A stretch of 64,000 nt of DNA. Origin: Escherichia coli O127:H6 str. E2348/69 (GTDB taxonomy: Bacteria > Pseudomonadota > Gammaproteobacteria > Enterobacterales > Enterobacteriaceae). Below are positions 40,264 through 41,333 of the stretch, piece by piece. The stretch is taken from assembly GCF_000026545.1 (NCBI RefSeq), contig NC_011601.1; one strand, written 5' to 3'. Each line of letters opens with the position of its first letter. Within the stretch, counting starts at the first letter, position 1. The notes beneath the pieces are model-generated. The model saw only the letters and a program-made list of their open reading frames with translations. It made no database searches and was not told the origin of the DNA. A program made the position numbers and the translations under genes.

Positions 40264-41109
40264 ATGGCTGAAGCGCAAAATGATCCCCTGCTGCCGGGAT
40301 ACTCGTTTAACGCCCATCTGGTGGCGGGTTTAACGCCGATTGAGGCCAACGGTTATCTCGATTTTTTTATCGACCGACCGCTGGGAATGAAAGGTTATAT
40401 TCTCAATCTCACCATTCGCGGTCAGGGGGTGGTGAAAAATCAGGGACGAGAATTTGTCTGCCGACCGGGTGATATTTTGCTGTTCCCGCCTGGAGAGATT
40501 CATCACTACGGTCGTCATTCGGAGGCTCACGAATGGTATCACCAGTGGGTTTACTTTCGTCCGCGCGCCTACTGGCATGAATGGCTTAACTGGCCGTCGA
40601 TATTTGCCAATACCGGTTTCTTTCGCCCGGATGAAGCGCACCAGCCGCATTTCAGCGACCTGTTTGGGCAAATCATTAATGCCGGACAAGGGGAAGGGCG
40701 CTATTCGGAATTGCTGGCGATAAATCTGCTTGAGCAATTGTTACTGCGGCGCATGGAAGCGATTAACGAGTCGCTCCATCCGCCGATGGATAATCGGGTA
40801 CGCGAGGCTTGTCAGTACATCAGCGATCACCTGGCAGACAGTAATTTTGATATCGCCAGCGTCGCACAGCATGTCTGCCTGTCGCCGTCGCGTCTGTCGC
40901 ATTTGTTCCGCCAGCAGTTAGGGATTAGCGTATTAAGCTGGCGCGAGGACCAGCGCATCAGTCAGGCGAAGCTGCTTTTGAGCACCACCCGGATGCCTAT
41001 CGCCACCGTCGGTCGCAATGTCGGTTTTGACGATCAACTCTATTTCTCGCGAGTATTTAAAAAATGCACCGGGGCCAGCCCGAGCGAGTTTAGGGCAGGA
41101 TGTGAATAA
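40264..41109 (+). CDS. araC: arabinose operon regulator AraC (C-terminus differs from the K-12 form)
   Basis: ORF track 40213..41109 trimmed to ATG at 40264 ([23 protein letters not shown]...); 281 aa ending ...SEFRAGCE*, shorter than the K-12 protein as I recall it. Confidence 0.9.
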
Positions 41110-41333
41110 TAAGAAAGAAGGGGGAGTCTCTTACTTTCGTTACCTGACGTTATTTATATATGTTACGGATAATTAATTTTATTTTATTTGTAAACTAAAT
41201 ATTAATTATCTTTAGGTGAATCGTTTCGCCTGAATAATATTTTTGTTTGTTTTTGCTTGCCTGTTTTTTTTCTTGATAAAAATCCCGATAACAATTTCTT
41301 TTTTAGTGATAATAAAATCAAAAAGGAAGACTT

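Follow-up and report, generated by a model that had tools for sequence, protein, structure and literature searches.

The araC gene of Escherichia coli O127:H6 strain E2348/69 ends in foreign DNA. The boundary lies inside the last 18 nt of the gene, at about position 41092 (codon 277) of the window, i.e. the 64,000-nt stretch of contig NC_011601.1 that was analysed. We infer that a block carrying a metabolic cassette was probably imported through homologous recombination, with crossovers within araC and at yabI, and that the stop codon of the donor araC came with it. The AraC protein that results is short in comparison with K-12. This length is the normal one in most relatives, so the short AraC is an ordinary and widespread polymorphism: the family-standard end has been reintroduced into E. 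coli B2 together with a metabolic cassette.

In E2348/69 araC (40264..41109, plus strand; open reading frame and RefSeq annotation WP_001298645.1) encodes an arabinose regulator of 281 aa and is divergent from araB (38225-39925, minus strand). Positions 41080-41112 read ccg agc gag ttt agg gca gga tgt gaa taa taa, which gives PSEFRAGCE and two stops, the TAA at 41107-41109 being the stop codon of the gene. The K-12-lineage araC (L002 3359-4237) is 879 nt long, encodes 292 aa and terminates GCEEKVNDVAVKLS. An earlier reading of the DNA made without database searches (the sequence-only reading) had described AraC as ending in SEFRAGCE, about 10 residues shorter than the K-12 protein. Both the ending and the longer K-12 form are correct, and the exact deficit is 11 residues (281 vs 292 aa): residues 282-292 (EKVNDVAVKLS) of K-12 AraC are absent. 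The difference of 281 vs 292 aa was reportedly remarked on when Salmonella typhimurium araC was sequenced in the early 1980s and compared with E. coli AraC.

Apart from its end, the gene is an ordinary E. coli allele that differs from K-12 by about 3% in DNA, and 279 of the first 281 residues of AraC are identical (the differences are P86S and R89H). Pfam finds AraC_binding at residues 22-160 (E = 8e-27), i.e. the N-terminal AraC-type cupin domain of ligand binding and dimerisation, and HTH_18 at residues 201-278 (profile positions 2-79 of 80), with the C-terminal double HTH complete. Residue 86 (40519-40521), which is Ser in E2348/69, is Pro in 27 of 29 aligned AraC orthologues and in LF82, CFT073, UTI89 and EC958. 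The exact 60-nt allele with Ser86 is found in 110 complete genomes, strain 536 among them, and is therefore a lineage polymorphism.

Alignment with K-12 araC, which the sequence-only reading had proposed for placing the breakpoint, was run and revealed a sharp step at 41092. The first 828 nt of araC differ from K-12 at 21 positions, which is ordinary between-phylogroup divergence. The 69 nt of 41023-41091 contain no mismatch, and the following 19 nt (41092-41110) contain six, where about 0.5 would be expected (P about 1e-5 by our Poisson calculation). Past 41113 the E2348/69 and K-12 sequences are unrelated. The left recombination boundary thus coincides with a foreign-type araC end at 41092..41112 (plus strand), consisting of codons 277-281 (AGG GCA GGA TGT GAA) and TAA TAA. 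All differences from K-12 in codons 277-281 are synonymous (AGG GCA GGA vs CGT GCC GGT), and the substitute end keeps the reading frame, giving RAGCE and a stop. Since RAGCE is encoded by synonymous codons, the replacing DNA is a diverged araC end and not arbitrary island sequence; the probability of an in-frame RAGCE-stop arising from random sequence is about 2e-8 by our calculation. It was proposed earlier that the left boundary of an AT-rich island had replaced the native last codons. The boundary is indeed inside araC, at codon 277, and the last 11 codons of E. coli type are absent, but what replaced them is the orthologous araC end of a diverged donor, in which RAGCE is kept, rather than the island leader. 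AT-rich sequence does follow directly 3' of the stop, as had been noted (GC 0.36 for 41000-41600 vs 0.55-0.60 in the araBAD and thi flanks). EC958 has an identical left junction, except for GCT at Ala278.

The first base of codon 282 differs between the short and the long form, as it would if a nonsense mutation (GAA to TAA) had shortened a K-12-type gene independently of the insertion. However, five more differences lie in the same 19 nt and the sequence past 41113 has no relation to K-12. Moreover, all 1067 complete E. coli genomes without the contiguous K-12 arrangement carry an insertion at the end of araC, with the 281-aa AraC in 6/6 of those checked. A separate nonsense mutation is therefore hardly credible.

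At the other end of the foreign tract the transition is abrupt as well. In K-12 araC and yabI are 85 nt apart, and this intergenic region is wholly absent from E2348/69. Similarity to K-12 restarts about 11 nt upstream of the yabI ATG (ggcacattatg), and no mismatch to K-12 is seen in the first 149 nt of yabI. The right boundary is thus at about 46679 and the foreign tract covers about 41092-46679 (~5.6 kb), with a step in divergence at both boundaries, inside or at the conserved flanking genes araC and yabI. The adjacency of these two genes is found in nearly every enterobacterial locus examined.

The tract begins, after the araC stop, with an AT-rich leader and promoter region (41110..41333, plus strand, GC 0.36), which in its 3' part shares homology with the leaders of the cassettes in Klebsiella spallanzanii and in two metagenomic loci described below (L084 and L085). 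Five genes follow on the plus strand: a DeoR-HTH/PfkB sugar-kinase fusion of 410 aa (41334..42566; Pfam HTH_DeoR at residues 6-58 and PfkB at 102-390), an aldolase-type enzyme of the DapA/DHDPS family of 307 aa (42592..43515; DHDPS, E = 5e-20), a TctC-family periplasmic binding protein (43570..44523; TctC, E = 8e-37), the small membrane subunit TctB (44572..45009, coordinates per RefSeq annotation; Pfam TctB) and the large permease subunit TctA (45019..46506; TctA, E = 3e-128). The adjacent TctC, TctB and TctA genes make up a tripartite tricarboxylate transporter (TTT) gene set according to Pfam. The GC content of the cassette is 0.36-0.50 as compared to 0.55-0.60 in the flanks. The right flank (46507..46689, plus strand) is a cassette-associated yabI upstream region. 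It can be aligned with the sequence to the right of the cassette in K. spallanzanii, L084 and L085, whereas the K-12 intergenic region gives no alignment. It is followed by the core gene yabI of the DedA family (46690..47454, plus strand; RefSeq annotation). The yabI-thiQ spacer (47448-47564) has sub-threshold matches to Rfam naRNA4 (REP-like repeats), at 30-37 bits against a gathering score of 59.5.

Directly 3' of the araC stop LF82 has a strong hairpin (L003 4213-4243; AAGAAAGAAGGGGGG-GAAC-CCCCCUUGCUUUCUU; -22.9 kcal/mol, z = -3.6), and similar hairpins occur in cassette-bearing Klebsiella loci; L079 and L084 have the hairpin after the araC stop. It is degraded in E2348/69 (41113-41140) and in EC958 (-13.7 kcal/mol, z = -1.7), so that araC transcription may run into the cassette in E2348/69.

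We also considered that the left leader and the right flank might be diverged copies of the araC-yabI intergenic region, as in a Campbell-type duplication. This was rejected: local alignment with eight genera gave only short matches. The match on the left (TAATAAG-AAAGAA, Kluyvera-like, z about 2) is short and weakly significant, and the one on the right is TTCA..AACCGGGCACA (z 4-5). These matches are suggestive of a duplicated intergenic region for the gene-proximal 15 nt or so only.

The same gene order, araC (281 aa), five-gene cassette and yabI, is found in three other lineages: K. spallanzanii (L079), whose cassette proteins are 63-90% identical to those of E2348/69, the metagenome scaffold L084 (kinase 76%) and the Klebsiella MAG L085 (kinase 73%). 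The cassette-type yabI upstream region and the promoter-proximal leader are common to these three and E2348/69. K. spallanzanii also has the closest kinase relative outside E. coli, at 81% protein identity. A donor with a near-identical araC tail, leader or block was not found in the search, in which this 81% kinase was the best relative from outside E. coli; K. spallanzanii araC shows a uniform 9% divergence from its relatives and no informative breakpoint. In Citrobacter sp. NCU1 (L087 2031-7721) the same five genes are located away from araC (kinase 72%) and adjoin an IS1 transposase fragment; therefore the cassette can also move by IS-associated routes. A contig from a MAG labelled Citrobacter carries a cassette near-identical to that of E. 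coli (98-100% aa), and a K-12-type araC (99% identity) is present on short contigs of the Photorhabdus namnaonensis and Xenorhabdus szentirmaii assemblies. These three cases (L005, L006 and L064) are probably contamination or mis-binning.

Which of the two AraC ends is the norm can be seen from a survey of 80 enterobacterial araC loci in species-representative genomes. AraC ends in RAGCE-stop at exactly codon 281 in about 50 of the 80 loci, belonging to at least 12 genera; carriers include Salmonella enterica subsp. arizonae (L026), the Citrobacter freundii group, Klebsiella, Raoultella, Kluyvera, Kosakonia, Pseudocitrobacter, Yokenella, Cedecea and Franconibacter, and further examples of the 281-aa protein are those of Citrobacter werkmanii (L008) and Klebsiella pneumoniae (L061). 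The 292-aa form was seen among the 80 loci only in Escherichia and in the Citrobacter amalonaticus/sedlakii group. Bases that follow the TAA in S. arizonae and the C. freundii group, aaagtgaatgatg...tgtcataa, align with codons 283-292 and the stop of K-12 araC. Thus the K-12 tail appears to be a former 3'UTR, and the Escherichia extension would be a lineage-specific read-through made possible by GAA in place of TAA at codon 282. By parsimony we infer that the short AraC is ancestral for the family and that the stop codon was lost on the way to the long form. The araC gene seems to be disrupted in Citrobacter koseri NCTC10786 (L077; the open reading frame stops after 55 aa) and in Kluyvera genomosp. 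3 YDC799 (L074; 223 aa with an altered end).

It follows that the word "shortened", used in the sequence-only reading, is right in relation to K-12 only: GCE-stop is usual across Enterobacteriaceae, and the 11 extra codons of K-12 correspond to Salmonella and Citrobacter 3'UTR. That reading had itself allowed that the short end might be the common form and K-12 the exception. This is what is found in the family, but not within E. coli, where the K-12 form is the 80% majority.

As GCE-stop is the family-wide norm, short araC and the cassette could in principle represent the ancestral E. coli state, kept in B2, the K-12 type having arisen later when the cassette was deleted and the stop lost. 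The known carriers CFT073, UTI89, LF82, EC958 and E2348/69 are B2 strains, and B2 is generally regarded as an early-branching phylogroup of E. coli. Nevertheless, a 292-aa AraC with the K-12-type tail and intergenic region is present in E. albertii and in two further Escherichia species other than E. coli. This makes the K-12 type the ancestral one in the genus and the short AraC of E2348/69 a secondary state. Retention of an ancestral state also does not agree with a discordance confined to the last 19 nt of an otherwise E. coli-like araC, with the low GC of the cassette compared to its flanks, or with two B2 alleles that are about 10% apart in the leader. We consider such retention very unlikely, and import of the cassette remains our preferred reading.

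Three arrangements cover all of the 5400 complete E. coli genomes with araC in our sample: the K-12 type in 4333, the full-cassette type of E2348/69 in 580 and an LF82 type in 487. Together the two short-form arrangements account for 1067 of the 5400. EC958 (ST131) has the full cassette and a 281-aa AraC; CFT073, UTI89 and LF82 have the LF82-type allele, also with a 281-aa AraC. The LF82 type consists of a foreign araC tail, the leader, the first 13 or so kinase codons, an IS630 remnant and two unrelated hypothetical genes. On its right side a displaced K-12-type araC remnant (codons 276-292) lies beside yabI and is followed by the K-12 intergenic region. Survival of these codons is direct evidence that the native tail was displaced in this allele. 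Between the LF82 type and E2348/69, identity in the tail and leader is only about 89.5%, with several indels, whereas araB-araC divergence is 0.9%; moreover, in the LF82 type foreign sequence extends further upstream in araC, as seen from differences at 41076 and 41079. It seems, therefore, that each allele was imported separately.

The hypothetical genes of the LF82-type insert (L003 4458-6002; also L089 and L090) have no Pfam match, and the first of them is split or shortened in CFT073 and UTI89. An LF82-specific hypothetical protein of 282 aa has homologues of at most 70% identity in Citrobacter, Salmonella and Trabulsiella, none of them of known function. In an assembly labelled E. coli SCPM-O-B-8794 (L004 8847-16843) araC is about 9% divergent in DNA and encodes 281 aa, and the place of yabI after it is taken by a chaperone-usher fimbrial-type operon that includes an 879-aa open reading frame. 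This fimbrial junction had no match in 5426 complete E. coli genomes, and the fimbrial-island allele plays no part in E. coli proper.

The displaced remnant in the LF82 type is what would be left by site-specific integration into the 3' end of araC at codon 276/277, by an element with an att site mimicking the araC end and a recombinase since lost. The insert of LF82, CFT073 and UTI89 is bordered by an imperfect direct repeat (left TTTAGGGCAGGTTGTGAATAATAAG, right TTTTGTGCCGGTTGTGAAGAAAAAG, 20/25 positions matching), the right copy of which is the displaced native araC end with the intact K-12-type intergenic region after it. The high divergence of tail and leader relative to araB-araC suggests that the site was used more than once. 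Against this, the repeat differs at synonymous positions, as expected of a diverged orthologue, and the IS630 remnant in the insert could explain the rearranged right side. No tyrosine or serine integrase or recombinase was found in the annotation of the E2348/69 window and LF82 or in Pfam scans of the two inserts. In the E2348/69 locus itself there is no displaced K-12-type tail near yabI (the K-12 tail used as a query matches one place), and the best flanking direct repeat, 19 nt at 79% (41218 and 46625), is unconvincing as an att site. Finally, the cassette is present in the araC-yabI interval of other genera with a matching yabI-proximal flank. The remnant thus keeps site-specific integration as a minority reading. 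We regard it as unlikely, since no recombinase was found, the repeat is imperfect and the insert contains an IS630 remnant.

A related proposal is that the last codons of araC are a recurrent, sequence-directed insertion site rather than a place where recombination happened to stop. E. coli B2 has two or more diverged versions of tail plus leader, the LF82-type allele has an att-like imperfect duplication of araC codons 276-283, and a third Escherichia lineage has the fimbrial operon next to a GCE-stop AraC. This proposal is quite doubtful.

Homologous replacement is supported by the low GC of the tract and by the lack of mobility genes, tRNA, Rfam family or convincing flanking repeat at the junction; the search for tRNA and tmRNA genes found none, and Rfam gave no match at the araC junction. 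According to this reading the whole Escherichia-type interval, from the last araC codons through the intergenic region, would have been replaced by a foreign block made up, in order, of the donor araC end and stop, the AT-rich leader, a five-gene cassette of sugar-acid type and the donor yabI upstream region. The block would have entered by homologous recombination between the conserved flanking genes, the left crossover being resolved within the last 18 nt or so of araC and the right one at the start of yabI. The donor would have had the RAGCE-stop end of AraC that most Enterobacteriaceae have, and therefore the recombinant would have taken the donor stop and lost the 11-codon Escherichia extension. 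As the donor stop adjoins the heterology, it would necessarily have been imported with the block. Several points speak against this scheme. The donor search gave no near-identical tail and leader, and the nearest kinase from outside E. coli reaches only 81% protein identity. A crossover within 18 nt of heterology needs either later erosion by within-species recombination or a donor that was E. coli-like upstream. Moreover, the displaced tail of LF82, which starts from codon 276 beside the left breakpoint, is unpredicted by a simple double crossover.

Loss of the tail would probably be neutral for AraC. The tail, whose importance for AraC the sequence-only reading did not judge, is not wholly uncharacterised. 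The solved DNA-binding domain of AraC (PDB 2K9S) covers residues 175-281 and ends exactly where E2348/69 AraC ends, and residues 282-292 are outside both this domain and the Pfam HTH domain, which ends at 278. In the AlphaFold model of K-12 AraC the extension has low confidence: pLDDT is 89 for residues 271-280, 51 for 281-290 and below 50 for 285-292, which may partly be explained by the small number of aligned sequences that have the tail. Given these domain ends, the low pLDDT and the fact that the short form is common in Salmonella and Klebsiella and is carried by one in five complete E. coli genomes, a functional effect of losing residues 282-292 is unlikely. With its ligand-binding, dimerisation and DNA-binding domains complete, the 281-aa AraC should regulate araBAD normally. 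At the DNA level, a 14-bp hairpin (L002 4220-4275, z = -4.4) has its left arm in codons 288-292 of K-12 araC (GCCGTCAAGTTGTC) and its right arm, GACAATTGACGGC, in the araC-yabI intergenic region beside TTGACG. The K-12 extension thus overlaps a structured element, possibly a terminator or a regulatory one. Full-text literature searches found nothing on the araC-yabI junction or the AraC tail.

These results correct the picture of the standard protein: K-12 AraC, the protein of textbooks and of pBAD, has an atypical C-terminal extension of 11 residues, and about one in five complete E. coli genomes, widely used B2 strains included, encodes the shorter, family-standard AraC. In annotation, a 281-aa araC beside the cassette should not be called truncated. 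The locus is also a tidy example of an import between core genes that gave an adjacent gene a new end, apparently without harm. New biology is implied only if the AraC tail proves functional. If there is an unrecognised targeting mechanism, or if the 11-residue tail tunes AraC, arabinose control in B2 would be systematically unlike that in K-12.

In comparison with known systems, E2348/69 has the same divergent araBAD arrangement as the K-12 locus that encodes the structurally characterised AraC (PDB 2ARC, 2K9S). Its AraC matches that of Salmonella enterica and other Enterobacteriaceae in length, last residues, stop position and domain content; it differs from the Salmonella-type genes in that non-Escherichia sequence is confined to its last 18 nt and the DNA beyond them. 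Prophage e14 and phage 21 integrate into icd in such a way that the element provides a new 3' end for the gene and displaces the native one. E2348/69 resembles this case in having a gene 3' end replaced by a diverged, protein-preserving copy, and the LF82-type allele resembles it in the remnant of the native end on the far side of the insert. Unlike at icd, E2348/69 has no integrase, excisionase, phage gene, exact core repeat or displaced remnant at this locus. There is also a likeness to small flexible-genome cassettes that lie between conserved core genes and are exchanged by homologous recombination in their flanks: here too the cassette is metabolic, has low GC, lacks mobility genes and occupies the same core-gene interval in several genera, with abrupt jumps of divergence in the flanking genes. 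What sets E2348/69 apart from other such cassettes is that the left boundary falls in a coding sequence of lineage-dependent length, so that the import alters the end of a protein.
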